DNA of 15,851 nt from a virus, in IMG/VR virus record IMGVR_UViG_3300045988_113302; one strand, given 5' to 3'. Each line of letters starts with the position of its first letter. Within the stretch, counting starts at the first letter, position 1. Position numbers and translations under genes: made by a program. The notes beneath the pieces were generated by a model. That model had not been told where the DNA came from, did no database searches, and was given only the letters and a program-made list of their open reading frames with translations. This document shows, in pieces, positions 1 to 15,851 of this stretch.

Positions 1-300
1 AGTTACATAGTCCGTGTACCGCGGACACTGTTTTCCCCAAAAATACAAACACTTGTTCGATTTTCAGATATTAAATTCGCTACGGGAAACTTGATCAATC
101 ATAAGATGTCAATAGTAATATTGCACAAATATATGTAAAAACTTTATGCACTTTTACTATTGATTTTGTTGAAACCAGACAATAGAACAATTTATCATAA
201 TTGTATATACAATTAAAACAAAAAGTGTCCGTCCACCGCGGACACAACCTGTCTCTGGTGGGCGAACACTATCGAACACTTGTTTGCTGTGGATAACTTA
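1..300. repeat. Left inverted terminal repeat (ITR-L), 300 bp
   Basis: Bases 1-300 are the exact reverse complement of 15552-15851, compared block by block by eye with no mismatch seen. Identity ends at 301/15551. Internal motifs are GTCCGTnnACCGCGGACAC at 10-28 and 227-245, the palindrome TAATTGTATATACAATTA at 198-215, and tandem CGAACACT at 263-270 and 273-280. Confidence 0.95.
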
Positions 301-317
301 CAAAACGTTAGTTCGGG

Positions 318-346
318 TTGACAAAATTACATAATAGGTTTACAAT
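318..346 (+). promoter_or_regulatory. SigmaA-like promoter P1 (TTGACA, 17-nt spacer, TACAAT)
   Basis: TTGACA at 318-323 and TACAAT at 341-346, with a 17-nt spacer. It lies 45 nt upstream of the 391 ATG. The downstream leader TACAATAGACTATAGATAGGAACA resembles the leaders of P2 and P3. Confidence 0.7.
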
Positions 347-390
347 AGACTATAGATAGGAACAGACTATCAGAAAGAGAGGAAAATAAA

Positions 391-1110
391 ATGGTAATCA
401 ATGTACACGCGGGTCACAACCCGCACGGGAAAGTAGCTTGTGGTGCGGTAGGTCTTATCTCTGAATCACTCGAAAACAGACGTGTAAAAGATTTAGTGGT
501 GAGTGAATTACGCCGCATGGGTCATACGGTCTATGATTGTACTGTGGAAAATGGAGTTTCACAGTCTGATGTGCTTAATCGCATTATTAGAAAATGTAAC
601 AAACACGTAGTAGACTTAGACGTTTCAATTCACTTTAATGCGGCGTCTAACTCACAGGCAAATGGGGCAGAAGTTTATGTATATTCCGAAAGTTCACAAG
701 CGGTTAATACTGCAAGTGAAACTTTAAACGCTATATGTTCGCTTGGCTTCCGGAATCGTGGAGTTAAAACAGCTAACAAGCTTGCATTTTTACGTCGTAC
801 AAGTGCGCCCGCTATGTTAATTGAGTGTTGTTTTACTACATCCCCAAAAGACGTAGCGCTATATAATGCGGAGGAAATGGCAGCGGCTATAGTGTACGGT
901 ATTACAGGTAGACGCTGTATTGCAGCGGGATCAACCGGACAGTGCACACCAGATGACGAGATTGACATAGCCGAAAAGACAGATGACAGTAAGGTATATA
1001 GGGTGTCTGTACTCGATCAAAAAGGTGCTTTTCACAATATCGAAAATGCGCACAATTTATTGGCAGCGCTTGAAAGCGCCGGATTTAAGGCTATAATAAC
1101 GGAGGGATAA
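391..1110 (+). CDS. Endolysin: N-acetylmuramoyl-L-alanine amidase (Amidase_3 type) with a short C-terminal SPOR-like repeat
   Basis: Amidase_3 hallmarks are VHAGHN, SIHFNA, GAEVY and LRRTSAPAMLIECCF. The C-terminal 38 aa (YRVSVLDQKGAFHNIENAHNLLAALESAGFKAII) resemble one repeat of the B. subtilis CwlC SPOR domain. RBS GAGAGGA at 377-383. No signal peptide. Confidence 0.9.
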   Translation: MVINVHAGHNPHGKVACGAVGLISESLENRRVKDLVVSELRRMGHTVYDCTVENGVSQSDVLNRIIRKCNKHVVDLDVSIHFNAASNSQANGAEVYVYSESSQAVNTASETLNAICSLGFRNRGVKTANKLAFLRRTSAPAMLIECCFTTSPKDVALYNAEEMAAAIVYGITGRRCIAAGSTGQCTPDDEIDIAEKTDDSKVYRVSVLDQKGAFHNIENAHNLLAALESAGFKAIITEG

Positions 1111-1111
1111 A

Positions 1112-1372
1112 ATGAACGGGTTACAAGAGTATCGAAAAAATTATGTACTGCAAAAAGTACGCGAAACATGGAGTAATGTATTATTAGACAGTATCTGCCC
1201 TTATGATGACGGTGCAATAGTACTAGTGTTTGCAGTTTGTGTTAATTTTAATACAATTAAAATGGTAACATTAGTTATCGAGCGCAACGCGGATTTAGAT
1301 CAATCTGTCGGAATTATCAATGAGCGCATAGCGTGGGCGTTTGCATCCGAACATTTGCGTTATGTACAATAA
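1112..1372 (+). CDS. Hypothetical protein (86 aa)
   Basis: The ATG is 1 nt after the endolysin stop, with GGAGGGA just upstream, so coupling looks likely. No recognisable motif. Confidence 0.5.
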   Translation: MNGLQEYRKNYVLQKVRETWSNVLLDSICPYDDGAIVLVFAVCVNFNTIKMVTLVIERNADLDQSVGIINERIAWAFASEHLRYVQ

Positions 1373-1859
1373 GGACTACCTCTTAAGTTTGCGGGGAAAA
1401 CAGCGGCGCGAGATGTACAAACAGCTTGTGCCGCTTGCAAATAAGCAGAAAGCACGAATTGAAAAGCAAGGCTTGGAGAAAGAAAGTGTGCTAAATGTAC
1501 TACATAAGCGGACTAACTGGGATATAGATAAGTACAATTCACGCGCTTATCTTAAGTTGGTTCGATTTGTTACAGCGCGCTCTCATACTTTAACTGGGAT
1601 AAAGGAAATAAGGCAGGAACGTACGCAAGCATTACGCGATATGGGAATATCTGAAAATCTGTTAAATGAAGCAGATTTTTATACTTTTTTGCATAGTCAA
1701 GAATACAAAAGTTTAAAAATGCGTAACCCATCGGAGGATATTATCGAAATTTATGATTTACTTTTTTCGCAGGGTAAGTCACATACAGAAATACAACAAG
1801 AATTGCAAGAATATTCTAGCGCTACACATGTCTATGTAAAGGGGAGAGCTTTATGGTAA
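1362..1859 (+). CDS. Putative terminal protein (replication primer); start uncertain (ATG 1362 or TTG 1341)
   Basis: A basic 165-aa ORF immediately upstream of the protein-primed polymerase. Its stop overlaps the polymerase start (ATGGTAA at 1853-1859). The call rests on synteny with phi29 gene 3/gene 2 only; no sequence motif was recognised and the RBS is weak. Confidence 0.4.
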   Translation: MYNKDYLLSLRGKQRREMYKQLVPLANKQKARIEKQGLEKESVLNVLHKRTNWDIDKYNSRAYLKLVRFVTARSHTLTGIKEIRQERTQALRDMGISENLLNEADFYTFLHSQEYKSLKMRNPSEDIIEIYDLLFSQGKSHTEIQQELQEYSSATHVYVKGRALW

Positions 1860-4039
1860 TATCTGTACAGCAGACTAAAAATGGAAAAGAAACGATTGAA
1901 ACTAAAGAAACAGTGTATTCTGTAGCGTCATACCCATATGACGCTACAGTTTTAGATTGTACTACAGTACGGAAAAAAGGGCGAAATGGACTTACATATA
2001 TAGCGCGTCCGGCAACGTTTGACATAGAAAGTACAACTATAGACGGCGAAAAACCAGAAGCATTTATGTATCATTGGCAGTTTTGCTTGAATGGTAAAGT
2101 CTGTTTTGGGCGAACTTGGGAAGAATGGATAAATTTTATGCATAAGCTAGGAACTACTTTGGAATTGGACGCTAAAAAAGTGTTAGTAATATATGTCCAT
2201 AATTTAGCTTATGAATTTATGTTTATAAAGGATTTTTTGCATATAGAATCACTTTTTGCGAGAGAAGCGCACAAGGTTATTAAAGTTTTAGCTTGCTTGG
2301 GTAATGATTACGGGAAAAGTATAAATAAAGTTGGGAATGTTTCACGTGAAACATTTCTTCTTCCCTTTTTTGAATTTAGGTGTAGTTATTTTTTATCAAA
2401 TATGTCTTTATCTAAATTTTGCGAAAATAGCAAATTTTGCACACACTATAAATTAGTAGACACTTATGATTATAGAAAAATACGGACACCGTCGACGCCG
2501 ATGACGGAGGAAGAATTAGCGTATTGTTATAACGATGTAAAAGGTTTAGAAGAGTGCATTTTGTCGAAATTAGATGACGAGTGTGACACGTTAGCTACCA
2601 TACCTTTAACATCGACAGGATACGTGCGGCGAGAAATGCGTGCAGAGTGTCGAAAATATCCAGAATATCGCGAACTTTTTGAAATACTTATGCCTACTAC
2701 GCAAATTTATACGTTATTGCGTCAAGCGTTTCGTGGCGGCAATACTCATGCGTCAAGGTACTATGCAGATGCCGTCATAGAGGGAGTTTTCAGCAAAGAT
2801 AGAGTGTCTAGCTATCCGGCATGTATTGTATCTGATTTATACCCAATGACACCATTTATAGTGTACGAACCTAAGTCTTACGCACAACTTATAGCGGATT
2901 GTGGAAAAAAGAAAAATGCTATAATAATGCGTATAACTTTATTTGATTTAGATGTGCACGATGATGTGACCGTGCCATATATTGATTTTGCGCACTGTAT
3001 AGCCTACAGTAAAAATTATGTAAATGATAACGGACGAGTGTTATCAGCCGATTGGATAACATATGCTTGTACAGAGTTGGACTTTTTAATCATAAATAAT
3101 CAATATAGCTACGATACTATGCGCCTAGAATGGCTAGAGGGCTACAAGGCAGAGAAAGACTACTTGCCTAAACCCATAGTTGACACAGCTCTTTCTTATT
3201 ATGACAAGAAAACACAATTAAAAGATGTGAGTGGAAAAGAATATGAGTATGCAAAAAGCAAAAATAAGGCTAATTCCGTTTTTGGTGTTATGGTTACAGA
3301 TATATGTCAAGGCGAAATAGAATATATAGATGGCGTTTGGTCTAAGACTATGCCGGATAAGGAAAGTGCTATAGCGGCTTACGCCGCAAGCAAAAACTCT
3401 TTTTTGCTTTATCAATGGGGAGTTTACATTACAGCAAATGCGCGCTATGAACTGCAATGCATGATTGATGCTTGCGGCTATGATTTTGTGTACACAGACA
3501 CGGATAGTGTAAAATTTATTGGTGAAGAACATTTAAAATCTTTTGACGACAGAAATAATTATTTATTATCCAAAAAACAAAAGTACAGAAATTATAGTGA
3601 TCGTTTAAACGATGATGGCACAACAACGCGATACACGCTCGGTGTATGGGATGATGATGGTTTTTATAAAAAGTTTAAAACATTGGGTGCGAAAAAGTAT
3701 GCATATATTGCGGACGAGAAAAACAAAAAAACCGGAGAGATAGAAGAAGTTTTACATGTCACTGTTTCCGGCTTATCAAAAACAAAAGGCGCGGCAGAAC
3801 TTGCGCGTGGAAATGGCTTAGCTGATTTTAAAATTGGCAAAATATTTACTGACTCGGGGCGCACAGTGTCATACTTTAATGAGAGCGATGTACATACTAT
3901 AAAAGTAGTAGATTACAATGGAAAAGAAAGTGAGTTTACCACAGCGTCAAACATAGCAATAGTTGATACTACTTATACTTTAGGTGTATCTGACGAGTAC
4001 GCCGCCGTCTTAGGCTCTTGTATAAATTTTTTTGAATAA
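1853..4039 (+). CDS. Protein-primed family-B DNA polymerase (phi29 type)
   Basis: Exo I FDIES, Exo II HNLAYEF, Exo III YCYNDV, motif A DRVSSYP, motif B KxxxNSVFG, motif C YTDTDS and KxY LGAKKYAY occur in the canonical order. It is 728 aa, longer than the phi29 enzyme. Confidence 0.93.
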   Translation: MVISVQQTKNGKETIETKETVYSVASYPYDATVLDCTTVRKKGRNGLTYIARPATFDIESTTIDGEKPEAFMYHWQFCLNGKVCFGRTWEEWINFMHKLGTTLELDAKKVLVIYVHNLAYEFMFIKDFLHIESLFAREAHKVIKVLACLGNDYGKSINKVGNVSRETFLLPFFEFRCSYFLSNMSLSKFCENSKFCTHYKLVDTYDYRKIRTPSTPMTEEELAYCYNDVKGLEECILSKLDDECDTLATIPLTSTGYVRREMRAECRKYPEYRELFEILMPTTQIYTLLRQAFRGGNTHASRYYADAVIEGVFSKDRVSSYPACIVSDLYPMTPFIVYEPKSYAQLIADCGKKKNAIIMRITLFDLDVHDDVTVPYIDFAHCIAYSKNYVNDNGRVLSADWITYACTELDFLIINNQYSYDTMRLEWLEGYKAEKDYLPKPIVDTALSYYDKKTQLKDVSGKEYEYAKSKNKANSVFGVMVTDICQGEIEYIDGVWSKTMPDKESAIAAYAASKNSFLLYQWGVYITANARYELQCMIDACGYDFVYTDTDSVKFIGEEHLKSFDDRNNYLLSKKQKYRNYSDRLNDDGTTTRYTLGVWDDDGFYKKFKTLGAKKYAYIADEKNKKTGEIEEVLHVTVSGLSKTKGAAELARGNGLADFKIGKIFTDSGRTVSYFNESDVHTIKVVDYNGKESEFTTASNIAIVDTTYTLGVSDEYAAVLGSCINFFE
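2336..2355. repeat. Palindrome copy A (AATGTTTCACGTGAAACATT) inside the polymerase ORF
   Basis: A 20-bp perfect palindrome with the 18-bp core ATGTTTCACGTGAAACAT at 2337-2354. It is read in frame as NVSRETF between the Exo II and Exo III motifs. Confidence 0.9.
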
Positions 4040-4042
4040 TAG

Positions 4043-4069
4043 TTGACAAAATAGAAAAGGGCTTATAAT
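4043..4069 (+). promoter_or_regulatory. SigmaA-like promoter P2
   Basis: TTGACA at 4043-4048 and TATAAT at 4064-4069, with a 15-nt spacer. The overlapping ATAATA and TAATAA give 16-17 nt instead. Followed by the ATAATGTAAG leader shared with P3. Confidence 0.6.
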
Positions 4070-4120
4070 AAATAATGTAAGAGAACAAATAAACAAGCAT
4101 AAGAAAGAGAGGAAATAAAC

Positions 4121-4294
4121 ATGAGAAGAACATTTTATGAGAAAGTAAAGAAGTATGGCTCGGTTGACACCAGAAAGTATAGATATGTGTTAGAGGACTA
4201 CGGGAACGTAGCGCGCTTGCCACTTGAATATCTGGACACTACAAGAGCGGAAGATGGATGGAAAATTATCAAAATTCCGGTGGAGTGGAAATAA
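4121..4294 (+). CDS. Small basic hypothetical protein (57 aa), below the ORF-track cutoff
   Basis: ATG 4121 follows the strong RBS AGAAAGAGAGGAAA found on other first genes. It translates as MRRTFYEKVKKYGSVDTRKYRYVLEDYGNVARLPLEYLDTTRAEDGWKIIKIPVEWK. The stop TAA at 4292-4294 overlaps the next ATG (TAATG). Confidence 0.6.
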   Translation: MRRTFYEKVKKYGSVDTRKYRYVLEDYGNVARLPLEYLDTTRAEDGWKIIKIPVEWK

Positions 4295-4479
4295 TGACAA
4301 TAAAGTTAATAACTGATTGGCTAATATCTTGTTATGAGACAGGCTACCTGTCTTATAACGAGATACGAAATGACAGAATTTTCTTTAAAATTCACAGATA
4401 CTTTCCGCGCGCAAATCCAAAAGAAGCGGAAGAAGCAAGAAAACGCGCAATTATGTATATAGAGAGGACAACAGTATGA
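4294..4479 (+). CDS. Hypothetical early protein (61 aa)
   Basis: The track ORF 4258-4479 is trimmed to the ATG at 4294, which overlaps the upstream stop. Its 3' end overlaps the next gene by ATGA. Confidence 0.5.
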   Translation: MTIKLITDWLISCYETGYLSYNEIRNDRIFFKIHRYFPRANPKEAEEARKRAIMYIERTTV

Positions 4480-4679
4480 AAATAAGCAAAGATGAGGCAG
4501 TGTATGCAGTGCTGAAAATGGTGCTTAATGAACAAGTTAGCTTACGTATGGTTTACGATGATTTATGGTTATATTACTTGTTAGTAGGCTTGGATTTATC
4601 GAAACAAGAAGTGATAGACGCTGAATACGAGATAAAAGAAGCAATCCTAAATTGTCTGAAAGAAAATTTAAAAATTTAG
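4476..4679 (+). CDS. Hypothetical early protein (67 aa)
   Basis: ATGA overlap with the upstream gene and GAGAGGA upstream. No recognisable motif. Confidence 0.5.
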   Translation: MKISKDEAVYAVLKMVLNEQVSLRMVYDDLWLYYLLVGLDLSKQEVIDAEYEIKEAILNCLKENLKI

Positions 4680-4689
4680 AAAAAATTTC

Positions 4690-4717
4690 TTGACATTTCC
4701 GGCAATGAGCGTATAAT
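4690..4717 (+). promoter_or_regulatory. SigmaA-like promoter P3 (TTGACA, 16-nt spacer, TATAAT)
   Basis: TTGACA at 4690-4695 and TATAAT at 4712-4717. The leader TATAATAGATAATGTAAGGAACA is homologous to those of P1 and P2. Confidence 0.7.
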
Positions 4718-4776
4718 AGATAATGTAAGGAACATACAAAACAATAAACAACAAAACAGAAAGTGAGGAAAACAAA

Positions 4777-4959
4777 ATGAAATTACATGATTTAGTACTT
4801 AGTAATTTAGAGTATATGTCGGATACAAAATTAGAAATATATGACTATGAAGTGCCGCGCATGATTGCATTTGGCACATCAGCAAAACTAATAGAAGATG
4901 GTTATGGTAATTATCCTGTTAAATTTTTTAATGGTATGCGAATTTACGTTTTGACATAA
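4777..4959 (+). CDS. Hypothetical early protein (60 aa)
   Basis: RBS AGTGAGGAAA 8 nt upstream. It is the only gene in the P3 unit. Confidence 0.5.
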   Translation: MKLHDLVLSNLEYMSDTKLEIYDYEVPRMIAFGTSAKLIEDGYGNYPVKFFNGMRIYVLT

Positions 4960-4968
4960 TAAGCCGAA

Positions 4969-5007
4969 ACGCCCTAAGGGGCGTCACGTACAAGGGTTGC
5001 AACCTTG
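4969..5007 (+). terminator. Two tandem hairpins after the early genes (terminator or RNA-stability candidates, no T-run)
   Basis: ACGCCC-TAAG-GGGCGT at 4969-4984 and CAAGG-GTTGCAA-CCTTG at 4991-5007. Neither is followed by a U-tract, so the function is uncertain. Confidence 0.35.
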
Positions 5008-5085
5008 CGTCTGATGATGGTAAGCAACACACAAACAAGCCTACAGAAATCTAGCAAAACAAAAAAGAAAGAGAGGAACAACACA

Positions 5086-5382
5086 ATGAAAGCACCGTTC
5101 ACAAGAACAGTAACCACATCGGTTGATTATGATGTGGTAACAGTATCTACCAAGGGAATTGAAGTTCTCGACCATCTGCATTTACCGGACGAACTCGATA
5201 CGGCTGCTAAAAAGGCAATCGAGAAGAAGCACTCTGGCAAAAAGATTCAGTTTATCGAATCTGGCAGAACAGAGGAAAAGCGCTTCATTTCCTATGAGGA
5301 TTTCATGGCGCACTCTATGACGGAAAAGGACTGGAACGATCACAAGGCGGCAACAGTAGAGTCTGCACCGACTTCCAAGTAA
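5086..5382 (+). CDS. Hypothetical protein (98 aa)
   Basis: The track ORF 5005-5382 is trimmed to ATG 5086, which follows AAGAAAGAGAGGAA. Codon usage is richer in GC than the flanking genes. Confidence 0.55.
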   Translation: MKAPFTRTVTTSVDYDVVTVSTKGIEVLDHLHLPDELDTAAKKAIEKKHSGKKIQFIESGRTEEKRFISYEDFMAHSMTEKDWNDHKAATVESAPTSK

Positions 5383-5386
5383 GTAA

Positions 5387-5404
5387 ATGTTTCACGTGAA
5401 ACAT
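5387..5404. repeat. Palindrome copy B (ATGTTTCACGTGAAACAT)
   Basis: An 18-bp perfect palindrome 4 nt after the stop at 5382 and 38 nt before ATG 5442. No T-run follows it. Confidence 0.9.
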
Positions 5405-5441
5405 AACTAACACAATTTAAATAAGAAAGGAAAATTAAACA

Positions 5442-5870
5442 ATGTCAAGCAGAAAAATCAGAGGAATCGTAAGAAACATTTTTGTCAAAGATGACAACGA
5501 AGTATCAATTTTAATCGAGATCGACGAGAAAACAGCGGCAGAGCTCCGCGGCGTGTATGATGCAAAGATCGAAAACCCGCTCAAGGATGGAGAGGGCGAA
5601 CTTGAGGGTAAGGTGCTGTACAAGGCGCATACGAAATATCCGGTAAACCTCTACATGCAGGGCGACCCTGTGGAAACAGATGATGATGACGAAACCATTG
5701 AGGAAATTCGTAAGATCGGCAATGGTTCGGCTGTTACAATTCGTGTACGCGAACAGTTAGACGGGCGGTACAAGTCCAAGAAATTCCAGTCTGCTTATCT
5801 CAAGGCGATCAATGTACGCGAGCTTGTAGAAGCAGAGCCCTACATGGATTTTGACGAAGATGACAATTAA
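5442..5870 (+). CDS. Putative ssDNA-binding protein (acidic C-terminal tail)
   Basis: 142 aa with an internal DDDDE stretch and the extreme C-terminus DFDEDDN, a tail typical of phage and bacterial SSBs. It sits in the replication/early block. This is inference only. Confidence 0.35.
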   Translation: MSSRKIRGIVRNIFVKDDNEVSILIEIDEKTAAELRGVYDAKIENPLKDGEGELEGKVLYKAHTKYPVNLYMQGDPVETDDDDETIEEIRKIGNGSAVTIRVREQLDGRYKSKKFQSAYLKAINVRELVEAEPYMDFDEDDN

Positions 5871-5880
5871 ATAACGATCA

Positions 5881-6192
5881 GCCGCAGAACTGCCATCCAA
5901 CCGCATGAAACAACATACATGCAGTAGAATGTCATTAAATGGCAATAAACGGCATTGCACAGCACTGAATGTTGTGTGATGCCGATGGATGGCAGATAGG
6001 CGGGTGTATTGCATTACGGGTATTGGATAGTTATTTTGTTTCTCGTTTTCCTCCGACTTGCCTTAGTCGAAAATGTCCAGTTTTTATGTCAACCAGTACC
6101 CGTAATGGAGTATTACCCGCTATCCCGTTAAAGCCCCGTACACCATGCGGAAAAACGCAGGGGTGCAGAGTGGTGTCTGCAAGGATAGCGGC
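5881..6192 (+). ncRNA. Unclassified structured RNA candidate with three closed helical domains; possible pRNA analogue or structured holin leader
   Basis: It lies in a 356-nt gap with no credible ORF. Domain 1: 5882-5885/6000-6003, 5890-5899/5986-5995 (10 bp) and hairpin 5950-5984 (14 bp, 3 G-U). Domain 2: 6012-6026/6093-6107 (15 bp, 1 G-U) and hairpin 6054-6058/6065-6069. Domain 3: 6117-6125/6183-6191 (9 bp), 6134-6137/6160-6163, 6146-6149/6156-6159 and hairpin 6165-6169/6176-6180. The bulge CACCA at 6141-6145 is complementary to the loop TGGTG at 6171-6175. The G-U pairs would be A-C mismatches on the minus strand, which argues for a + strand RNA. Confidence 0.55.
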
Positions 6193-6226
6193 GAACCTCT
6201 AAAATTAAATAAGGGAGAGTAAAAAG

Positions 6227-6550
6227 ATGATTTATTTAATTACTTTTTTGTTTATGGTTCTGGATTTTATAAGCGGAATCGTAATGGCAGTGAAGAACAA
6301 GAATTTCAATTCTTCCATTATGCGGGAAGGGCTTTTCAACAAGTTCGGTTCTGTTTGCGTGATTGCTTGCGCGGTGCTGATTGACTGGGGGCAGATTTAT
6401 CTTGATATTGGTTTTACCGTTCCGGTAGCGTCTGCAATGTGCAGTTATATTATTCTCATGGAAATCGGTTCGATTTTGGAAAACGTAGGAAGAATAAATA
6501 AGAACTTAGTACCCGAGAAAATCCGGTCGATATTAGAAAAGGTTTCATAA
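6227..6550 (+). CDS. Holin (Phage_holin_4_1 / LL-H-TcdE-like, 3 TM)
   Basis: 107 aa with three hydrophobic segments. Motifs are DFISGIVMAV, SS..REG...K and EIGSILENV, typical of that holin family. RBS GGGAGAG. Confidence 0.8.
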   Translation: MIYLITFLFMVLDFISGIVMAVKNKNFNSSIMREGLFNKFGSVCVIACAVLIDWGQIYLDIGFTVPVASAMCSYIILMEIGSILENVGRINKNLVPEKIRSILEKVS

Positions 6551-6570
6551 TGTTTCACGTGAAACATTAT
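6547..6570. repeat. Palindrome copy C (ATAATGTTTCACGTGAAACATTAT, 24 bp)
   Basis: This is the longest copy. It overlaps the holin stop codon (6548-6550) and abuts tRNA position +1 at 6571. Confidence 0.9.
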
Positions 6571-6641
6571 TGGCGCGTAGTTCAGAGGGAGAACAGTAGA
6601 TTTTGACTCTATAGTCGCGGGTTCGATTCCCGCCGCGCTAG
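6571..6641 (+). tRNA. tRNA-Gln (anticodon UUG)
   Basis: Manual cloverleaf. Acceptor TGGCGCG/CGCGCTA with U1-A72 and one G-U. D arm GTTC-AGAGGGA-GAAC. Anticodon arm GTAGA-TTTTGAC-TCTAT, with U33, TTG and A37. Variable loop AGTC. T arm GCGGG-TTCGATT-CCCGC. Discriminator G. No encoded CCA, and a T7 run follows. Confidence 0.85.
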
Positions 6642-6662
6642 TTTTTTTGGAGGAAAAGAGAA

Positions 6663-7730: not shown

Positions 7731-8852
7731 ATGGCGGCTATAAAAGATTACGGATATATTAAAGCAACATGGGATGCACTTGCGGGATTGATACCTAACG
7801 AGATAGGGCGTGCCGGACTGTTGGGAAATTGGTACGCAGAGAGTAAAGTCATACCATATATTAAACAAGGCAATACACGACCACCGTGGTCGCCTAGTAC
7901 AACTTACACTAATAATGTTGATAACGGTATTATTAGCAAAAGTTCATTTATTAACGATTCTGTTGGTTACGGATTCGCACAATGGACGTATTGGAGCAGA
8001 AAAGAGTTAATGTATACTATCGCGGAAAATTTAGGCATGAGTATAGGCGCTTTTGATGTTGGTATAGCAATGGTAACTAACGAGATGACGCAAGGCGCAC
8101 AAGAATATAAAGATACTTTAACAGTGTTGTTAAATGCTACAGATATAAGAACGGCTAGTGATCGAGTACTACATCATTATGAAAAACCACAAGACCAGAG
8201 TATAAATGCGGAGATAGAGCGAGCTGATTATGGCGATCAAATCTACAATTTGTTGCATGGTTCTGCACCAATCGAAAGAAAAAGCTTGACAATTACACCG
8301 ACTAGTGCTAGTATTATAGACGGGGGAACTGTTACAATTAGTGTTGAAGCGACCGGAGAATGGGCGTATAGCTTAGGGCAGTATCTCTCACTTGTAGAAA
8401 AAACTGACGGCGCGCTTGTAATTAGCGGAAATGCACAGACAGCGCAGATTACAACCGCCGTAGCCTTTTGGCTTGTGGATGATGCCAGTGTGCAGGCACA
8501 GTGTCAAATTGGTATCAACCGATCAGCACCACCTGCACCAACTATCAGCGTTACGCCATATAGTCAGACCGCAAATGTAAACACGATTGTTAGATTTATG
8601 GTAAGCGCTAACAGAGCATGGAGCGTTAAAGTACCTAGCGGTGCTAGTTTGTATCGTAAAGACGGTAACTCGGTTTATATTTTAATAGGTAATACCGCTT
8701 TAACCAGAATTGTCTTAAGATTTTATATCAATGATGATGTGAATATCTATCAAGATGTACCAGTAAATATATTGGGCGTGTCGCCAATTCCGAGCAGCAG
8801 AAAAACGCCTTTAATATATTATTTAAAACCATTTTTTAGAAAAGGGAGGTAA
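7731..8852 (+). CDS. Tail-associated peptidoglycan hydrolase (Phage_lysozyme2-type N-domain plus two beta-sandwich-like repeats)
   Basis: GLLGNWYAES, GYGFAQWTYWSR and HHYEKP resemble the phage tail lysozyme family. The C-terminal half holds two roughly 85-aa segments of similar pattern (LTITPTSASI... and ISVTPYSQTA...). Confidence 0.7.
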   Translation: MAAIKDYGYIKATWDALAGLIPNEIGRAGLLGNWYAESKVIPYIKQGNTRPPWSPSTTYTNNVDNGIISKSSFINDSVGYGFAQWTYWSRKELMYTIAENLGMSIGAFDVGIAMVTNEMTQGAQEYKDTLTVLLNATDIRTASDRVLHHYEKPQDQSINAEIERADYGDQIYNLLHGSAPIERKSLTITPTSASIIDGGTVTISVEATGEWAYSLGQYLSLVEKTDGALVISGNAQTAQITTAVAFWLVDDASVQAQCQIGINRSAPPAPTISVTPYSQTANVNTIVRFMVSANRAWSVKVPSGASLYRKDGNSVYILIGNTALTRIVLRFYINDDVNIYQDVPVNILGVSPIPSSRKTPLIYYLKPFFRKGR

Positions 8853-8855
8853 AAG

Positions 8856-9146
8856 ATGACAGTAGACGAAGCTTTGAAAGCGATCTTAGGAAAGATCGAA
8901 GCGCCGGAGGAATTAGACGAAGAAATCAACGTAATCACGGAGTCAATCAGAAGTGGCGCAAACGTAACCGACGACGGCTACAAGGAACGCTATGAGGGCT
9001 TGCGCGAAAAGTACATTGCGCGTTTTGGCGAGATGTTAGCCGGACAGGAAAATCCGAGAACGGACATTGAAGAACCAAAAGCAGATGTTGAAGTGATCGA
9101 GGACGTAACGCCGGATATGCTCGATTTTGACGGCAGTACAGAGTAG
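8856..9146 (+). CDS. Putative scaffolding protein (phi29 gp7 position)
   Basis: 96 aa, very acidic and with helix-prone composition. It lies directly upstream of the capsid gene. RBS GGGAGG. Confidence 0.6.
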   Translation: MTVDEALKAILGKIEAPEELDEEINVITESIRSGANVTDDGYKERYEGLREKYIARFGEMLAGQENPRTDIEEPKADVEVIEDVTPDMLDFDGSTE

Positions 9147-9166
9147 AGAAAGTGAGGTAGAAGAAA

Positions 9167-10444
9167 TTGGCTAATAAAGTAGCGGCAACAAACGTTGCCA
9201 TATTAAACGCAGTGAGATCTATGCAAAGTCTGGAGTATCGGGACAGGATTCCCGAAGCGACGGCGGAAAATATCTCAAGTATCTATGAAAGTTTGCTCAA
9301 CATAGTTCCGTTAAGAAATGCGTTTGCTAACGCTTTGGTTGAGCAAATTATGGAGCAGAGAATCGAAACCGTCTTTTTTGAGAATCCTCTGGGAGTGCTT
9401 AAGAGAGATCCGATGCGATACGGCGGCACAGAAGAAGAAATTTTTATCAATATGGCAAAAGGTAAGCAGTTTAACCAGTTCGCAACCGTTGCAGAACTGT
9501 ATGCCTACTATCAGTCAAGTGTCATGGCGGCGTATCACAAGATCACACCCGCTATCCAGTACGCGGTTACAGTCACTTTTGACAACTTGCGTACAGCGTT
9601 TAGATCAGAGTATGGTGTGCGCGATCTGATTAACGCAAAAGTACAGTCACTTTTTGCGGCGGCGAACTGGGATGAATACCTCTGTATGAAGCGTCTTATT
9701 GAGAGCGCAAGTGCAGCAGATCAGCTTTACGCGGTTAATGTTGCAGACCCTACAGCGAGCGCAGAAAACGCTAAAAAGCTGACAAAGCTTGTAAAAGCCT
9801 ACATCGGACAGATGAAATTTCCCCATCCAGAGTACAACATTGCCGGAGCAGACAGTTGCGCAAACGATCAGACTATCTTTTATATCACTACGCCGGAGAT
9901 CGACGCAGAGTTAGACGTTGAGGTACTTGCCACAGCGTTTAATATGGACAAGGTGGATATTAACGTCCGCAAGATCATCATTGACAAGTTTGATGACCCG
10001 AACATTAAGCTTGCGTTATTTGACATGAGATTTTTCAATGTGCGCGAGAATTTTCGGACACTGACGGATTCGAGAAATGGTGCGGCGCTGACGTGGAATT
10101 ATTTTTACACGATGTCTGAAATGTTTTCCTATTCTCCATTTTTCCCTTGTATCGTCTTTACCACAGACACCGTCGGGCTTACAGCCGTGAGTGTTACAGA
10201 CACCGCCGGAAACGTGGGAACTGATGTGGAGATCACGGCGTTAGTAAGCGGAGACAGCCAGTACACGCCGCAGATGCTTGACTATGACGTTGAAGGCGCT
10301 ACAAGTCAGTATACGTCCTTTATCCCCGGTTCAAATATTTTACATATTGCAAATGATGAAAAAACGGCAACACTTACGGTCAAAGCAACGTCAAGATATA
10401 ATAGCACGATCAGTGGGACAGGTACTGTCACAGTCAACCAGTAA
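9167..10444 (+). CDS. Major capsid protein with C-terminal Ig-like (BIG2-like) domain; TTG start
   Basis: 425 aa, following the scaffold as gene 8 does in phi29. The C-terminus (LTAVSVTDTAG...ATLTVKATS...GTGTVTV) looks like a bacterial Ig-like domain. RBS GTGAGGT is 8 nt before the TTG at 9167. Confidence 0.8.
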   Translation: MANKVAATNVAILNAVRSMQSLEYRDRIPEATAENISSIYESLLNIVPLRNAFANALVEQIMEQRIETVFFENPLGVLKRDPMRYGGTEEEIFINMAKGKQFNQFATVAELYAYYQSSVMAAYHKITPAIQYAVTVTFDNLRTAFRSEYGVRDLINAKVQSLFAAANWDEYLCMKRLIESASAADQLYAVNVADPTASAENAKKLTKLVKAYIGQMKFPHPEYNIAGADSCANDQTIFYITTPEIDAELDVEVLATAFNMDKVDINVRKIIIDKFDDPNIKLALFDMRFFNVRENFRTLTDSRNGAALTWNYFYTMSEMFSYSPFFPCIVFTTDTVGLTAVSVTDTAGNVGTDVEITALVSGDSQYTPQMLDYDVEGATSQYTSFIPGSNILHIANDEKTATLTVKATSRYNSTISGTGTVTVNQ

Positions 10445-10472
10445 AATGTTTCACGTGAAACATTGATTTTTT
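10445..10472 (+). terminator. Palindrome copy D plus T-run: likely intrinsic terminator after the capsid gene
   Basis: AATGTTTCACGTGAAACATT at 10445-10464 is followed by GATTTTTT. It is the only copy with a U-tract. A second hairpin, AGGGGAG-TGCAATG-CTCCCCT, follows at 10474-10494. Confidence 0.6.
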
Positions 10473-10509
10473 GAGGGGAGTGCAATGCTCCCCTAGAAAT
10501 GAGGGAAAC

Positions 10510-12195
10510 ATGGATAGCATGATACCTATGCCAACACAAAAAAACGTAGACGGGATAGCACCTGTTGCACAAGTAAGAATCTGCCGCGGGATTCCTTGGG
10601 ATTCGTCGTATAACCATGTAAGGCTTTTTAATAGTCGAGAAGAACTTTTTGCTTATGTTGATAGCAAAGCAATTTATAGTACTGATAATGCCGCGCCAGT
10701 TAAGAGAGGTTACGCGGATTTTGCCGCGCCCGTCAACGAGTTATACGCCGATAGCGCTAACTATATCGCATTTAAAAATGTTGGATATATGGATAATTGG
10801 ATGTACGGCTTTATTACGAGCGTAGAACCGTTATCCGTGAACTCTTGCCGCGTGCATTTTATCATGGACGTCTGGACGAATTGCCAATTCGATATGGTGC
10901 TAAATAAGTGCTATATCGAACGCCAGATTGTAAAAAAGAGTGAAGATGTGATAGGGCGGTATACTTTTCCAGAGGGATTGGAGACCGGAGATTATATCGT
11001 AAAACAAGAGACAGAACAAAATTATGATGCGCCGGAACTAAGTGATCGAAACATTATGAGCGTTGTCGTTCCGAGCGCATTTGACGAGAGCGGAAATTTT
11101 AACGGCGGCGAATTTAGAGATGGCGTGTATACTGCCATCACTTATAACGTTTTTGATAATGGAGACGGCGTAAACGAATTTTTAATTTCTGCTAACGCAA
11201 ATGGTACTATTGACGGAATTTTAAACGCGTTTATGATGCCAAGCAGCTTTATCGCAGAGGAAACACAATTCAAGCAACTTAATCTACCAAAAAAGTATGA
11301 CAGTATTGACGGCTATGTGCCGAAAAACAAAAAGCTGTTTTGTTATCCATATAACTTTTTATACGGAAACAACAACAACGGCACAGGAATAGAGTATAAA
11401 TATGAGTATTTTTCCAGTGACGCTTGTAGTTTTACTTATACAGTAGCTATGACACCTAACCCACTATTAGTGTCCTACCCCATCCAGTATAGAGGATACA
11501 CCGTAGATTATACCGATATGCTTACATTTTCGGACTATCCAAAATGCGCCATCATGACAGACGCATACAAGGCATATATTGCGCAAATGACAAGCACCGC
11601 GGGCGCGAGCGCTTTAATGAGCGCGGGAAACGCGGTTTCGCAAGGTGTTGACACTGCCACCGGAGTTTTTAGCGGCGTTGGAAAAGCGTTATCTGGTGCG
11701 GGTTTTGGTTTTTTGGGTGCGGCGGCGAGTGGAGCGGGAAACGCCATAGCAACAGGAAAGCAAGCCGCAAGTGACGCTTTTAAGTCTAGTCCATTAAGTA
11801 CTCTTGGTAGCACTGATTGGTCTGATGTTATCGGGAACGGTATAAAGGCGGTAGTTAATCATTTTTTACAGCCGAGTGGAAACGTCACAACTGCTAGCGG
11901 TAATGCTAGTAAGATCATCGGAAACGATCACATTAGCTATTATCCGATGCAAATTCGAGCAGAGTATGCGCGGAAGATTGATGACTATTTTACCATGTTT
12001 GGGTACAAGATTGGAGAGATCGGACAACCCGCAATCAACAATAGATCGGCATGGGATTTTGTCAAAACACGTAATTGCACGATCAGCGGTAACATTGACC
12101 TTGATTACCTTGTTGTTTTACGATCAATATTTGATCGCGGTGTGACAATATGGCACACTAATGACATCGGTAATTATGGGCTTACAAACAATTAA
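10510..12195 (+). CDS. Tail knob / distal tube protein, phi29 gp9-like
   Basis: The N-terminus VRICRGIPWDSSYNHVRLF...ANYIAFKN...NWMYGFITSVE...VHFIMDVWTN parallels the remembered gp9 N-terminus (VRILADVPFSNDY...FQNADYGNKWFYAFVTELE). A Gly/Ala-rich hydrophobic loop lies near nt 11581-11790. The start is set at ATG 10510, after GAGGGA. Confidence 0.82.
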   Translation: MDSMIPMPTQKNVDGIAPVAQVRICRGIPWDSSYNHVRLFNSREELFAYVDSKAIYSTDNAAPVKRGYADFAAPVNELYADSANYIAFKNVGYMDNWMYGFITSVEPLSVNSCRVHFIMDVWTNCQFDMVLNKCYIERQIVKKSEDVIGRYTFPEGLETGDYIVKQETEQNYDAPELSDRNIMSVVVPSAFDESGNFNGGEFRDGVYTAITYNVFDNGDGVNEFLISANANGTIDGILNAFMMPSSFIAEETQFKQLNLPKKYDSIDGYVPKNKKLFCYPYNFLYGNNNNGTGIEYKYEYFSSDACSFTYTVAMTPNPLLVSYPIQYRGYTVDYTDMLTFSDYPKCAIMTDAYKAYIAQMTSTAGASALMSAGNAVSQGVDTATGVFSGVGKALSGAGFGFLGAAASGAGNAIATGKQAASDAFKSSPLSTLGSTDWSDVIGNGIKAVVNHFLQPSGNVTTASGNASKIIGNDHISYYPMQIRAEYARKIDDYFTMFGYKIGEIGQPAINNRSAWDFVKTRNCTISGNIDLDYLVVLRSIFDRGVTIWHTNDIGNYGLTNN

Positions 12196-12210
12196 CGAAA
12201 AGAGGTAAAA

Positions 12211-13101
12211 ATGAAAAATCAATCTAAAGACGCTGAATATTTTAGCGTACCACAGTATCGCAATTATTATGTGCGTTACTTTAATATGTTGCATGAAATG
12301 ATCGTGAACCGATTTGAATGGTTGGGATTGCCGGATGAAATTCCACCGAGAGTATTGGAAGATTATCTTTTCTGGTGGGGACAGGCTGTCTTTTTTAAAG
12401 ATGATGTACTAGAAAAATACGCCGCTATGAAAACCAACCTTGGCGGTACTGTAGATATTTATGGCGTACCTAGCATGCGTTTCGCCTATGCACAACAGTA
12501 TTTTAAAACGCTTGGAAAAAATAACAGTGTCATCATCTGGGATAGTAGCGTAGGTTATCCTAGCATTGACTATGTGCAGATGTACGCGGAAAGTTTGGCA
12601 AATATGAGGATGACAAGAAATTTAAATATTTACGCGCAAAGAACGCCTGTTGTTATTGCGGGTAGCGAAAATCAGCGCTTAAGTACAAAAAACCTTTTTA
12701 AACAGTATAATGATTTTGTACCATTTATCAGCGTTAAAGACGGAATTAGTAACGTTGAGAACATGAAAGTACTAAATCTAAACCCACCTAACGTGTTCGG
12801 TGACCTTACAACGGCTATGAGACAAGAAATTGCAGACTTTTGCGTGCAGTTCGGTATTAGTAATATTGACGGCACAAAAAAAGAGCGACTAATTACAAGC
12901 GAAGTAGAGCAAGATGCAGACCTTACGTTAATTAACCGCCAGTCTTTTTTAGGTGTACGAAAACGCGCTTGTGAACAGATTAACCGCCTGTTTGGACTTG
13001 AGGTTGATGTGCGCTACATCGGTAGCGGACTTGGCGTTGAGAGAAAAGAAAACCTTGAGAGAGGGGGCGGAGAAAATGGCGACATATACAACCAGAATTA
13101 G
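12211..13101 (+). CDS. Portal / upper collar (connector) protein, phi29 gp10-like
   Basis: FEWLGLPDEIP, NIYAQRTPVVIAGSENQRLS, KKERLITSEV and RKRACEQINRLFGLEVDVRY parallel gp10 motifs (FEWENLP, NQNAQKTPVLI, KKERMVTDEV, REEACEKINELYGLNV). Confidence 0.9.
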   Translation: MKNQSKDAEYFSVPQYRNYYVRYFNMLHEMIVNRFEWLGLPDEIPPRVLEDYLFWWGQAVFFKDDVLEKYAAMKTNLGGTVDIYGVPSMRFAYAQQYFKTLGKNNSVIIWDSSVGYPSIDYVQMYAESLANMRMTRNLNIYAQRTPVVIAGSENQRLSTKNLFKQYNDFVPFISVKDGISNVENMKVLNLNPPNVFGDLTTAMRQEIADFCVQFGISNIDGTKKERLITSEVEQDADLTLINRQSFLGVRKRACEQINRLFGLEVDVRYIGSGLGVERKENLERGGGENGDIYNQN

Positions 13102-13855
13102 AGACTACATTGAAAGCTTTACGGACTGGAAAGACATAAACGCTACTACTTACGACAAAATCGAAAAAGGTATGCCGAAGCTTTTCGACTTTACGTTTCC
13201 ATGGTACAATGACGATGACTCCAGTAAAACAGAGTTTGAACGTATGTTTATCATACACTTTTACATGTGTGAGATCGGTTTTGAAACCATCGGCTTATTT
13301 AAGCTTAAGTTAAACGACACGCTTACGCGAAATATGCCGAAATATAAGGCTATGTATGACAGTAATTTAACAGTGGCACAGATTTTGGAAAACGTCAACA
13401 TGACGTTTGACGATACTGACACAAGCGACGGAAACAACACAAGCGAAGCAGACCACACAATGAGTGACACAAATAACAGCAATTCCAATGATCAACGAAT
13501 CAATAGCGACAACCCGCAAGTCAATTTTTCCGGTGCAGATTACGCAAGCGGTATGACTAGAGGACAGAGCACCGAAGAGGATATCCGCACGGTTAGCGAA
13601 CAAAACACAGGCAAGAGTAATACATCCATTATAGATACTAGCCACCGGACGGAAAAAGGATGGCGCGGCAGTAAGATGAATGAACTTGTGATGTATCGTG
13701 AACACATTGTAAATGTCAACAACGCTATCATTGCGGATTGCGAAGAATTATTTATGTCAATATTTGACGATTTTTCCGAACATGGTAACGATTTTAATAT
13801 GATGGCGTACGGAAACCGCGGAAACTTAGGTTTATCTATTGATTGGATGCGGTAG
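13076..13855 (+). CDS. Lower collar protein (phi29 gp11 position)
   Basis: ATG 13076 follows GGGGGCGGAG and overlaps the portal 3' end by 26 nt. 259 aa. The call rests on gp10-gp11 synteny and the EIGFETIGLFK segment. It contains a low-complexity Asn/Ser/Asp/Thr-rich insert (DDTDTSDGNNTSEADHTMSDTNNSNSND). Confidence 0.6.
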   Translation: MATYTTRIRDYIESFTDWKDINATTYDKIEKGMPKLFDFTFPWYNDDDSSKTEFERMFIIHFYMCEIGFETIGLFKLKLNDTLTRNMPKYKAMYDSNLTVAQILENVNMTFDDTDTSDGNNTSEADHTMSDTNNSNSNDQRINSDNPQVNFSGADYASGMTRGQSTEEDIRTVSEQNTGKSNTSIIDTSHRTEKGWRGSKMNELVMYREHIVNVNNAIIADCEELFMSIFDDFSEHGNDFNMMAYGNRGNLGLSIDWMR

Positions 13856-13869
13856 AGAGGAGTAGAAAA

Positions 13870-14910
13870 ATGGCGAACAAAATCAACCCTTTTGACCCTA
13901 ATGTAAATTCTGGGCTGTATGAGATACACTTTCCAGACTTTGCGTTTTGGATGCAAAAGACGCAACCACTTGTTTATGATGATGCGTTATCATACTATGA
14001 GGTATTAGGCCGAATTGCTAGTATGCTTAATCAGCTTATTAAGCAAGTTAATGACCTCACTGATGCACAAAAAAAGTTTATCGAAGATGCGACAAAACTT
14101 TTGAACCAGATTATCAGCGAATGGAATAGTATGGTGGATGAATTTAACACCATGAAAAATGAATTCAGCAATTGGCGGAATACTTTTAACCAGTGGTCTC
14201 AACAAGTCGAAAATTGGAGAAACCTTTTTAATGAGTGGGAAACAACATTTAATAATTGGGGAAGTGAATTTAACAGTTGGAGAACAGAGTTTAACGACTA
14301 CATCAAAAAAATTGATGAATTTATACAAAAGATTGAAAACGAGTGGAACAACTATAAAACGGAAATTGACAATACTATTTCTAACATACATGGAGAAATA
14401 ACTAACGTTAATGTTAGCGTTGATGTAATGCCGATCAAAAAACACGGACACGTTAATATTCACGCCGCGGGGAGCGAGCATAGCGACACTAATTACGGCA
14501 GTATGGACTGGTATGACCTTGTCTACCCAGAAGTTACTATACGCTTTATTAGCGCTATTATCTCCGCAACATTTAATGCAGTGCCGGAAGGAGTTACCGG
14601 AGCTAAACGCTTAGGACGTTTTGTGACTGAAAATGTCGATATTGATGACCCTAATTTTACATATCTTTTAGACCTTTTAAGCAATCCGGCGTTCGGCGGC
14701 GCAAGCGTGTACAATAATACCAAAAATATTTATTACCCTGCTGTTATTAACTTCCCAAAAAAGCCGAGCGCAAGCACCGAGTATGAGATATTAGTACCAT
14801 CATGGGCTACTGTAGACAGTGGAGACACGTGTTTATTTTATATTTACGAGGGCGGTAAGACGCAGTTGGGAAATACCACGCCCGATTGGTATAAAAATAA
14901 TGTGCAGTGA
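13870..14910 (+). CDS. Tail fibre / appendage protein with aromatic heptad coiled coil
   Basis: ATG 13870 follows AGAGGAG. The N-terminal YDDALSYYEVLGRI motif is common at phage fibre N-termini. Fourteen heptads occupy 14119-14412. The C-terminal globular part is a putative receptor-binding domain. Confidence 0.6.
   Translation: MANKINPFDPNVNSGLYEIHFPDFAFWMQKTQPLVYDDALSYYEVLGRIASMLNQLIKQVNDLTDAQKKFIEDATKLLNQIISEWNSMVDEFNTMKNEFSNWRNTFNQWSQQVENWRNLFNEWETTFNNWGSEFNSWRTEFNDYIKKIDEFIQKIENEWNNYKTEIDNTISNIHGEITNVNVSVDVMPIKKHGHVNIHAAGSEHSDTNYGSMDWYDLVYPEVTIRFISAIISATFNAVPEGVTGAKRLGRFVTENVDIDDPNFTYLLDLLSNPAFGGASVYNNTKNIYYPAVINFPKKPSASTEYEILVPSWATVDSGDTCLFYIYEGGKTQLGNTTPDWYKNNVQ
14119..14412 (+). repeat. 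Degenerate 21-bp periodic repeat encoding xFNxWxx heptads
   Basis: EWNSMVD EFNTMKN EFSNWRN TFNQWSQ QVENWRN LFNEWET TFNNWGS EFNSWRT EFNDYIK KIDEFIQ KIENEWN NYKTEID NTISNIH GEITNVN. Confidence 0.85.
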
Positions 14911-14924
14911 GAGAGGAGTAAGAG

Positions 14925-15554
14925 ATGTATAAGAAAGACTATCATCCAGACGAAAATTTAATTTTTGAGACAGAACACTATCAGTTTCCGGTGTCCAAGA
15001 GTACCACGGAAGACCCCGATCTTGAAAGAACTGTAAAAATCGACGAAGCGCTATACGATGAAGCAAAAGTAAGGTTAAACGAAGATACAAAACTAAACAA
15101 AAAAATTGATGATGAAACCAAAAACAGAGAAAACGCTGACCAGTCGTTGGAATCAGAAATCTATAAAATAACGCCAAGTATCAAATTTTTGTATTTTGGT
15201 AAAGATGATTTTACCACGTTAAGCGGTTCTCCGGCAAATGTAGAAGTTTATATAACAATGCTAAAGATAAATGATATTATTATTATGTTTCATAGAGTTA
15301 TATTTACTGGGAATGCTCCAAGTAATTTTATTTCTTACACTGCACAACTAGATCTGACAAAAGTAATACAGAGCGGCTACAAGGTAAGCAATTTTACTAT
15401 ATGGCAATCTTTAATACACAAAGACGATAACATTTTAGCTACTCGTAGCAATAATATACAAATTATAAACAATAATAAATATCTGTACTACCAAACGCAA
15501 GAACCTACTGGATGCGTTTTTTGCGGTACTACAATTTGCATGTTATCGGAATAA
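14925..15554 (+). CDS. Second putative fibre / receptor-binding protein (209 aa)
   Basis: RBS GAGAGGAG. It is the terminal gene of the structural block, with a short charged helical segment followed by a very AT-rich C-terminal domain. Its stop codon TAA (15552-15554) forms the first three bases of ITR-R. No motif was recognised. Confidence 0.45.
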   Translation: MYKKDYHPDENLIFETEHYQFPVSKSTTEDPDLERTVKIDEALYDEAKVRLNEDTKLNKKIDDETKNRENADQSLESEIYKITPSIKFLYFGKDDFTTLSGSPANVEVYITMLKINDIIIMFHRVIFTGNAPSNFISYTAQLDLTKVIQSGYKVSNFTIWQSLIHKDDNILATRSNNIQIINNNKYLYYQTQEPTGCVFCGTTICMLSE

Positions 15555-15851
15555 GTTATCCACAGCAAACAAGTGTTCGATAGTGTTCGCCCACCAGAGA
15601 CAGGTTGTGTCCGCGGTGGACGGACACTTTTTGTTTTAATTGTATATACAATTATGATAAATTGTTCTATTGTCTGGTTTCAACAAAATCAATAGTAAAA
15701 GTGCATAAAGTTTTTACATATATTTGTGCAATATTACTATTGACATCTTATGATTGATCAAGTTTCCCGTAGCGAATTTAATATCTGAAAATCGAACAAG
15801 TGTTTGTATTTTTGGGGAAAACAGTGTCCGCGGTACACGGACTATGTAACT
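15552..15851. repeat. Right inverted terminal repeat (ITR-R), 300 bp
   Basis: Exact reverse complement of 1-300. Confidence 0.95.
15607..15637 (+). terminator. Rho-independent terminator of the rightward transcription unit, embedded in the ITR
   Basis: GTGTCCG-CGGTGGA-CGGACAC (7-bp GC-rich stem) is followed by TTTTTGTTTT. The mirror copy at 225-245 would stop only leftward (minus-strand) transcription. Confidence 0.75.

Follow-up and report, generated by a model that had tools for sequence, protein, structure and literature searches.

The 15,851-nucleotide stretch deposited as the IMG/VR virus record IMGVR_UViG_3300045988_113302 (the window, by which we mean the whole stretch analyzed) begins and ends with a long inverted repeat and encodes a DNA polymerase resembling that of phage phi29. 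This raises the question of whether the window is a complete linear phage genome, how such a genome would be replicated, and to which phages it is related. Our analysis indicates that the window very probably represents the nearly complete, unit-length linear double-stranded DNA genome of an uncultured phi29-like podophage. An abundant uncultured gut lineage thereby gains a well-supported, near-complete reference genome whose ends are placed to the nucleotide.

Inverted terminal repeats and genome ends

The initial annotation described perfect 300-bp inverted repeats at the window edges, and positions 1-300 and 15552-15851 are indeed 100% reverse-complementary, with both arms stopping at the edges. 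The next-longest inverted repeat of the window measures 41 nt at 78% identity, so chance cannot yield a repeat of 300 bp. The repeats contain the following elements:

1-300, + strand: left inverted terminal repeat, type A; the genome itself probably extends two A's beyond position 1
15552-15851, - strand: right inverted terminal repeat; the last gene has its stop codon, TAA, in the first three bases (15552-15554)
10-26, + strand: outer GTCCG-N7-CGGAC inverted repeat, with the stem invariant and the spacer variable in relatives; mirrored at 15826-15842
225-245, - strand: inner GTGTCCG-N7-CGGACAC hairpin followed by a T-run; mirror copy at 15607-15627 (+)
273-296, + strand: conserved inner repeat edge, CGAACACTTGTTTG (LexA/Cheo box with one mismatch) and then TGTGGATAA (DnaA-box consensus)

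Fifteen contig ends in nine IMG/VR relatives start with AAAGTTACATAG, as do three further metagenome contigs, making twelve independent contigs with this end; it corresponds to the window end AGTTACATAG plus two A's. The terminal 17-mer AAAGTTACATAGTCCGT has 19 phage-related occurrences in IMG/VR and a metagenome contig collection, all at contig position 1 or 2 and none internal; its internal matches are unrelated chance hits, save one fold-back artefact at a microhomology in the relative L015. IMG/VR contains no exact copy of the 30-mer at the window terminus. Because the ends of the relatives carry two extra A's, the true terminus probably lies two A's past each window edge, and the genome would measure ~15,855 bp with 302-bp repeats starting 5'-AAAG. 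The same AAAG terminus is found in phi29 (AAAGTA) and Cp-1 (AAAGCA). The claim that the window is a complete linear genome thus needs a small correction: linearity and the repeats are borne out by independent assemblies, but the ends probably lie 2 nt outside the window.

Nothing points to a larger replicon, since the contigs carrying a 142-amino acid (aa) protein of the phage (5442-5870; more than 150 contigs) reach at most 16,166 bp, and a capsid-protein scan for a host or prophage found no relative in 185,579 species genomes.

Alignment of 24 ends separated the repeats into type A, found in the window, in L028, and on the left of L006, and type B. Both share the outer 45 bp, several short blocks, and two GTCCG-N7-CGGAC inverted repeats with variable spacers, and their inner boundary is identical (CGAACACTTGTTyGnTGTGGATAAC). 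The hairpin copy at 15607-15627 (+) lies 53 nt past the last stop codon and is probably the terminator of rightward transcription. Two relatives, L006 and L015, carry one type-A and one type-B repeat each and are either recombinants or strain chimeras. These comparisons give a clear picture of an origin-containing repeat that exists in two alleles, with recombinants between them.

Polymerase and phi29-type module set

All credible genes of the window lie on the plus strand and are read from left to right. The genes that place the phage are:

1853-4039, + strand: protein-primed family B DNA polymerase, 728 aa
6663-7730, + strand: gp16-type packaging ATPase (Podovirus_Gp16)
9167-10444, + strand: phi29-type major capsid protein (Phi29_MCP)
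10471-12195, + strand: gp9-type tail knob (phi29_gp9_C)
12211-13101, + strand: gp10 connector/portal (Phage_connector)
13076-13855, + strand: gp11-type lower collar (PHROG 5472/3225), with the start set at Met42 of the open reading frame (ORF)

The polymerase matches DNA_pol_B_2 (PF03175, E 1.6e-9) and PHROG 1907 (E 9e-55). Its sole PDB match is the phi29 polymerase, in an alignment that extends through the TPR1 and TPR2 regions. The translation contains the motifs ExoI (FDIES), ExoIII (YCYND), A (DRVSSYP), B (KANSVFG), and C (YTDTDS), as well as KKYAY. A Dx2SSYP motif A and a polymerase of ~727 aa are likewise found in Clostridium perfringens podophages (PMC3362512). These features identify the polymerase as belonging to the protein-primed type.

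The ATPase, capsid, connector, lower collar, and tail knob proteins all (5/5) score above the Pfam gathering threshold or have a strong PHROG match, in agreement with the phi29-type polymerase, gp16-like ATPase, and gp9-, gp10-, and gp11-like proteins recognized earlier. The polymerase type, the five-gene module set, and a small linear genome with fixed-end repeats, which together characterize phi29-like podophages (Salasmaviridae, Guelinviridae, Rountreeviridae, and allied unclassified phages), are all present. The phage is a further member of this known design, for which long end repeats are ordinary.

LexA-like sites and alternative readings

The same replicon could follow another lifestyle and persist as a protein-capped linear plasmid-prophage under the control of host LexA, rather than being strictly virulent. 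Motifs resembling the Gram-positive LexA box (CGAAC-N4-GTTCG) occur in the window at 46-59, 273-296, and 302-323, and in the relative L017 at 266-310, within the repeat and up against the leftmost promoter. Besides the box at the inner repeat edge, the one at 46-59 also carries a single mismatch, and such one-mismatch boxes are confined to the repeats, where four were found versus 0.40 expected. The perfect DnaA-box 9-mer TGTGGATAA is found at the inner edge of each repeat (2 versus 0.17 expected). Just inside the unique region lies the following promoter:

318-346, + strand: leftmost sigma-70 promoter, TTGACA-17-TACAAT; conserved in relatives

Type-B relatives have an exact Gram-positive LexA box, CGAACACTTGTTCG, at the inner repeat edge and a second core box, GAACAAAAGTTC, that abuts the -35 element of this promoter; the two are the sole matches within each type-B genome. 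A comparable arrangement is known from the tectivirus GIL01, a 15-kb linear protein-primed prophage with all ORFs read left to right and LexA boxes at its first promoter, P1 (PMC4551915). Unlike the window, with its phi29-type capsid and tail genes, GIL01 is tailless and membrane-containing, with unrelated structural genes, and LexA control of the window is hypothetical. Within the phi29-like phages themselves, the capsid cluster that contains Clostridium phage HM2 also includes a 16.8-kb "plasmid" from C. beijerinckii (PMC11476376). Three observations speak against a prophage state: the capsid scan described above found no relative in the species genomes; the window has no recognizable repressor, partition, or LexA-cofactor gene; and its boxes are degenerate, with one to two mismatches, in a motif that could equally bind a phage protein. 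We consider LexA-controlled persistence unlikely, while giving it some weight. The LexA-box type, together with the relatives, suggests a host among the Bacillota.

Far less probable is that the inverted repeat is an assembly artefact, due for instance to a chimeric fold-back or a wrong path through the assembly graph, and that the real ends differ. The 100% identity of the arms is partly by construction, because de Bruijn assembly usually collapses both copies of an inverted terminal repeat, and a collapsed repeat node would give identical arms. Many relatives have symmetric, truncated repeats of 55-213 bp that resemble such graph collapse, the left end of L015 has a 17-nt fold-back, and Illumina or Nextera adapter sequence is present at the ends of the public IMG/VR contigs L004, L016, and L027. 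An artefact is difficult to reconcile with the many relatives that have terminal inverted repeats of 288-325 bp, and with ~20 contigs from several studies that agree in their repeat, in its inner boundary (TGTGGATAAC), and in the outermost base. Moreover, the left and right arms are only 72% identical in L006 and 70% identical in L015, and arms that differ in this way were assembled independently. Repeats are also carried by cultured phages, with ~170 bp in HM2, 55 bp in Amedibacillus phage AD70P2, 236 bp in Cp-1, and 350 bp in Mycoplasma phage P1 (11,660-bp genome). A repeat of 28 bp is annotated in phiCPV4. The 300-bp repeat is within the known range for the group and, as proposed earlier, comparable to those of Cp-1 and P1. 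Together, the assemblies indicate that the repeat is real.

A circular genome, or a terminally redundant and permuted one that was linearized by the assembler, is hardly credible. The repeat is inverted and not direct, and a search for a junction between the two ends, which the initial annotation had named as refuting evidence, found no contig that reads through the AAAGTTACATAG end or joins both ends. That all phage-related occurrences of the terminal 17-mer fall at contig starts is the assembly-level counterpart of sharp coverage ends and speaks against circular or permuted forms. The ATPase belongs to the gp16 type, and that of phi29 packages DNA in unit lengths and does not cut concatemers (PMC11476376). 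Covalently closed hairpins or another telomere system operating without a terminal protein are no more credible, since the fold-back at one L015 end that might suggest them joins at an internal microhomology instead of forming a clean palindrome, no protelomerase is present, and the polymerase is of the protein-primed class.

A candidate terminal protein

Under the preferred reading of a protein-primed linear genome, a terminal protein would be expected, and the ORF directly upstream of the polymerase gene is the candidate:

1362-1859, + strand: terminal-protein candidate, 165 aa, all-helical, with invariant Ser124

A word-indexed search returned only close relatives of this product, and a relative is already present in NCBI nr as a Caudoviricetes entry from a metagenome-assembled genome. 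A full HMMER search, which covered 1.84 billion representatives, recovered 87 divergent relatives. Ser124 is the sole invariant residue of this unannotated family in an alignment of 45 sequences with a mean identity of 20%. The AlphaFold model of the candidate is all-helical, with a predicted local distance difference test (pLDDT) score of 91, and places Ser124 at a helix N-terminus. In Clostridium phage HM2, MT836155, Amedibacillus phage AD70P2, and Salmonella phage astrithr, the candidate profile picks exactly the ORF upstream of the polymerase. Three more metagenome contigs encode, downstream of a candidate-family gene, a polymerase that is 38-45% identical to that of the window. The polymerase gene thus directly follows a candidate-family gene of the same orientation in 7/7 cases tested. 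Foldseek matches of the model in BFVD are unannotated Podoviridae or Tectiviridae proteins.

The conserved position and the invariant serine make it reasonably likely that the 1362-1859 product is the terminal protein, in which case Ser124 would be the best candidate for the priming residue. A testable terminal-protein family would then be common to HM2-like, Amedibacillus, Astrithrvirus, and gut phages.

Proposed replication and packaging mechanism

In the mechanism that we propose, the genome would be bounded by inverted terminal repeats of ~302 bp beginning 5'-AAAGTTACAT, and the 728-aa family B polymerase, complexed with the terminal protein, would begin DNA synthesis at both ends. Deoxyadenosine monophosphate (dAMP) would be attached to the terminal protein through a hydroxyl residue, opposite an internal T of the 3'-TTT template end (3'-TTTCAATG), and the polymerase would then slide back to restore the terminal base, as happens in phi29, Nf, and Cp-1. 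Use of a 3'-TTT template end for sliding-back initiation in phi29 and Nf is described in a previous report (PMC3480470); by analogy, the phage of the window may initiate in the same way. The genome would be copied by strand displacement from a minimal origin formed by the outer 45 bp that both repeat types share. Farther in, the repeat holds conserved inverted repeats of a protein-binding type, the probable terminator of the rightward operon, and the sites by the leftmost promoter. Finally, the gp16-type ATPase would package unit-length, protein-capped DNA through the gp10 connector.

Several points weigh against this picture. The candidate has no match to a known terminal protein in Pfam, PHROGs, PDB sequences, or a Foldseek search against PDB, and HHalign comparisons with phi29 gp3, the Cp-1 terminal protein, and phiCPV4 gp06 were all negative. 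At 165 aa, it would also be shorter than either characterized phage terminal protein used for comparison, phi29 gp3 with 266 aa and that of Cp-1 with 230 aa. The window as given lacks the terminal AA and hence the 3'-TTT reiteration. Rfam detected no prohead RNA (pRNA), and the pRNA model had no match even at E <= 10 on the candidate region described below. The analysis thus shows the repeats, the position of the ends, the gene content, and the polymerase type, and from these we infer a protein covalently attached to the 5' ends, the identity of the terminal protein and of its priming residue, and sliding-back. The earlier view of the window as a terminal-protein-linked, protein-primed replicon accordingly stands for the polymerase type, while the protein link is a deduction with no known terminal-protein family matched.

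Relatives and comparison with known phages

A capsid-protein scan of IMG/VR revealed 37 loci at 95-98% identity, of which the full-length ones span 15.2-16.1 kb. None of 50,697 phage records matched the whole window in a megablast search. The lineage is common in human-gut metagenomes and uncultured. Smaller genomes are on record in the phage group, namely astrithr (11.6 kb), Mycoplasma phage P1 (11.7 kb), and AD70P2 (12.3 kb). The 15.85 kb of the window, which had been placed at the small end of the group, is thus small but not extreme.

The polymerase is 25% identical to that of phiCPV4, 24% to that of phi29, and 40% to that of AD70P2. Polymerase and ATPase are closest to those of Clostridium phage HM2 (43% and 42%), which makes HM2 the closest cultured relative in replication and packaging. 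Among the structural proteins, similarity to phi29 and to HM2 is about equal, and identities are at most 29% apart from short segments. HM2 also shares the terminal-protein-candidate family upstream of its polymerase and a long terminal repeat, but differs in that its structural proteins are only 24-27% identical, its genome measures 17.5 kb, and its candidate homologue (L001, 1150-2088) is a 312-aa tandem duplication of the domain.

phi29 has the same module set, and its structural proteins are unsurpassed in similarity among cultured phages (capsid 27%, portal 29%, lower collar N-terminus 46%, and tail knob C-terminus 39%). It differs in its 6-bp repeat, its divergent early and late transcription, and its polymerase, and it has a pRNA and a gp3-type terminal protein, neither of which is detectable in the window. 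Cp-1 (Salasmaviridae, Cepunavirus) resembles the window in its linear genome with long inverted terminal repeats (annotated as above, and 352 bp at 98% identity), in both ends starting 5'-AAAG, and in having nearly all genes on one strand; its terminal-protein gene stands just before the polymerase gene, where the window has its candidate. In contrast, the Cp-1 capsid, portal, and ATPase proteins are just 23-27% identical, the polymerase was undetected by tblastn, the terminal protein is unrelated to the candidate, the gene order is different, and the genome measures 19.3 kb. Mycoplasma phage P1 is comparable in its long repeat on a small linear genome, but no protein similarity was detectable by tblastn.

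Conserved RNA and DNA elements

Several elements of this kind in the window could account for regulation in this phage group:

4962-5022, + strand: hammerhead ribozyme, type II layout, between the ORFs 4777-4959 and 5083-5382
5871-6226, + strand: conserved structured non-coding RNA region, ~350 nt (z = -7.3)
2338-2353, no strand assigned: 16-bp palindrome TGTTTCACGTGAAACA, also at 5388, 6551, and 10447

The hammerhead scores below the Rfam gathering threshold (27.8 versus 37 bits), with a stem II of just 3 bp and an extra U after A9. It nevertheless has all elements of the type II hammerhead, namely the core CUGANGA, GAAA, a UH cleavage site, and covarying stems I and III, and 24 distinct relatives keep GCC-GAAA, GUH, and CUGAYGA-UGGC. 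Two variants exist, in which stems I and III differ in sequence with pairing kept; separate parsing of the stems was used because MAFFT with RNAalifold misaligned the variants. The predicted cleavage site follows C4985. The element is kept in almost all relatives, and L010 carries both variants. Phages are known whose polycistronic transcripts are processed by hammerheads (PMC3088659).

The structured RNA region separates the 142-aa ORF from the holin gene, and these two are 333-374 nt apart in every relative. Its two types are 52% identical, and it folds far more stably than shuffled sequence (z -7.1 to -7.4), with compensatory changes seen within type B. A central hairpin of 26-27 bp has a distal half that is wholly different between the types. 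The hairpin loop contains UUCCUCC, which resembles an anti-Shine-Dalgarno sequence, and the Shine-Dalgarno sequence of the holin gene pairs with a CUCU located upstream. A search of 5850-6250 and the equivalent L017 region with Rfam gave no family and only spurious matches to microRNA hairpins. Among phi29-like podophages, pRNA is known only in Bacillus members. The region may be a holin leader or a counterpart of pRNA. That this RNA is a pRNA counterpart, that the 165-aa Ser124 protein founds a new terminal-protein class, and that the phage is a LexA-repressed tailed linear prophage, all jointly, seems to us distinctly improbable. Hammerhead variant, RNA type, and repeat type assort as a mosaic among relatives.

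The four copies of the palindrome compare with 0.01 expected. Three lie right behind stop codons and one inside the polymerase ORF, and these positions are kept in relatives; the distant phage HM2 has one copy, just past its capsid gene. The palindrome is probably an operator or an RNA hairpin.

Remaining genes and features

The rest of the window contains lysis genes, a transfer RNA (tRNA) gene, a further promoter, and less well-characterized ORFs:

391-1110, + strand: Amidase_3 endolysin
4690-4717, + strand: perfect consensus promoter, TTGACA-16-TATAAT
5083-5382, + strand: weak match to double-stranded DNA-binding proteins (PHROG 6370, E 8e-4)
5442-5870, + strand: 142-aa protein with an acidic tail
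6227-6550, + strand: holin (Phage_holin_4_1)
6570-6642, + strand: tRNA-Gln (UUG), conserved in relatives
7731-8852, + strand: tail lysozyme
13843-15554, + strand: two distal genes, for a 355-aa coiled-coil protein and a 209-aa protein

By their position only, the two distal genes probably encode tail or receptor-binding proteins. Two small ORFs lie between the endolysin and polymerase genes, and several more between the polymerase and holin genes. The AlphaFold model of the 142-aa protein (pLDDT 45) was discarded. ORF 5969-6202 (77 aa), which lacks homologues and overlaps the structured RNA, was rejected as a gene, and all minus-strand ORFs were rejected as non-coding, having no homologues and overlapping the structured RNA or plus-strand genes. 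The endolysin gene is the first after the leftmost promoter, upstream of the replication genes and 5 kb away from the holin gene. The tRNA-Gln gene sits between the holin and packaging ATPase genes, in the same place in 9/9 relatives scanned with Rfam; phi29 itself has no tRNA.

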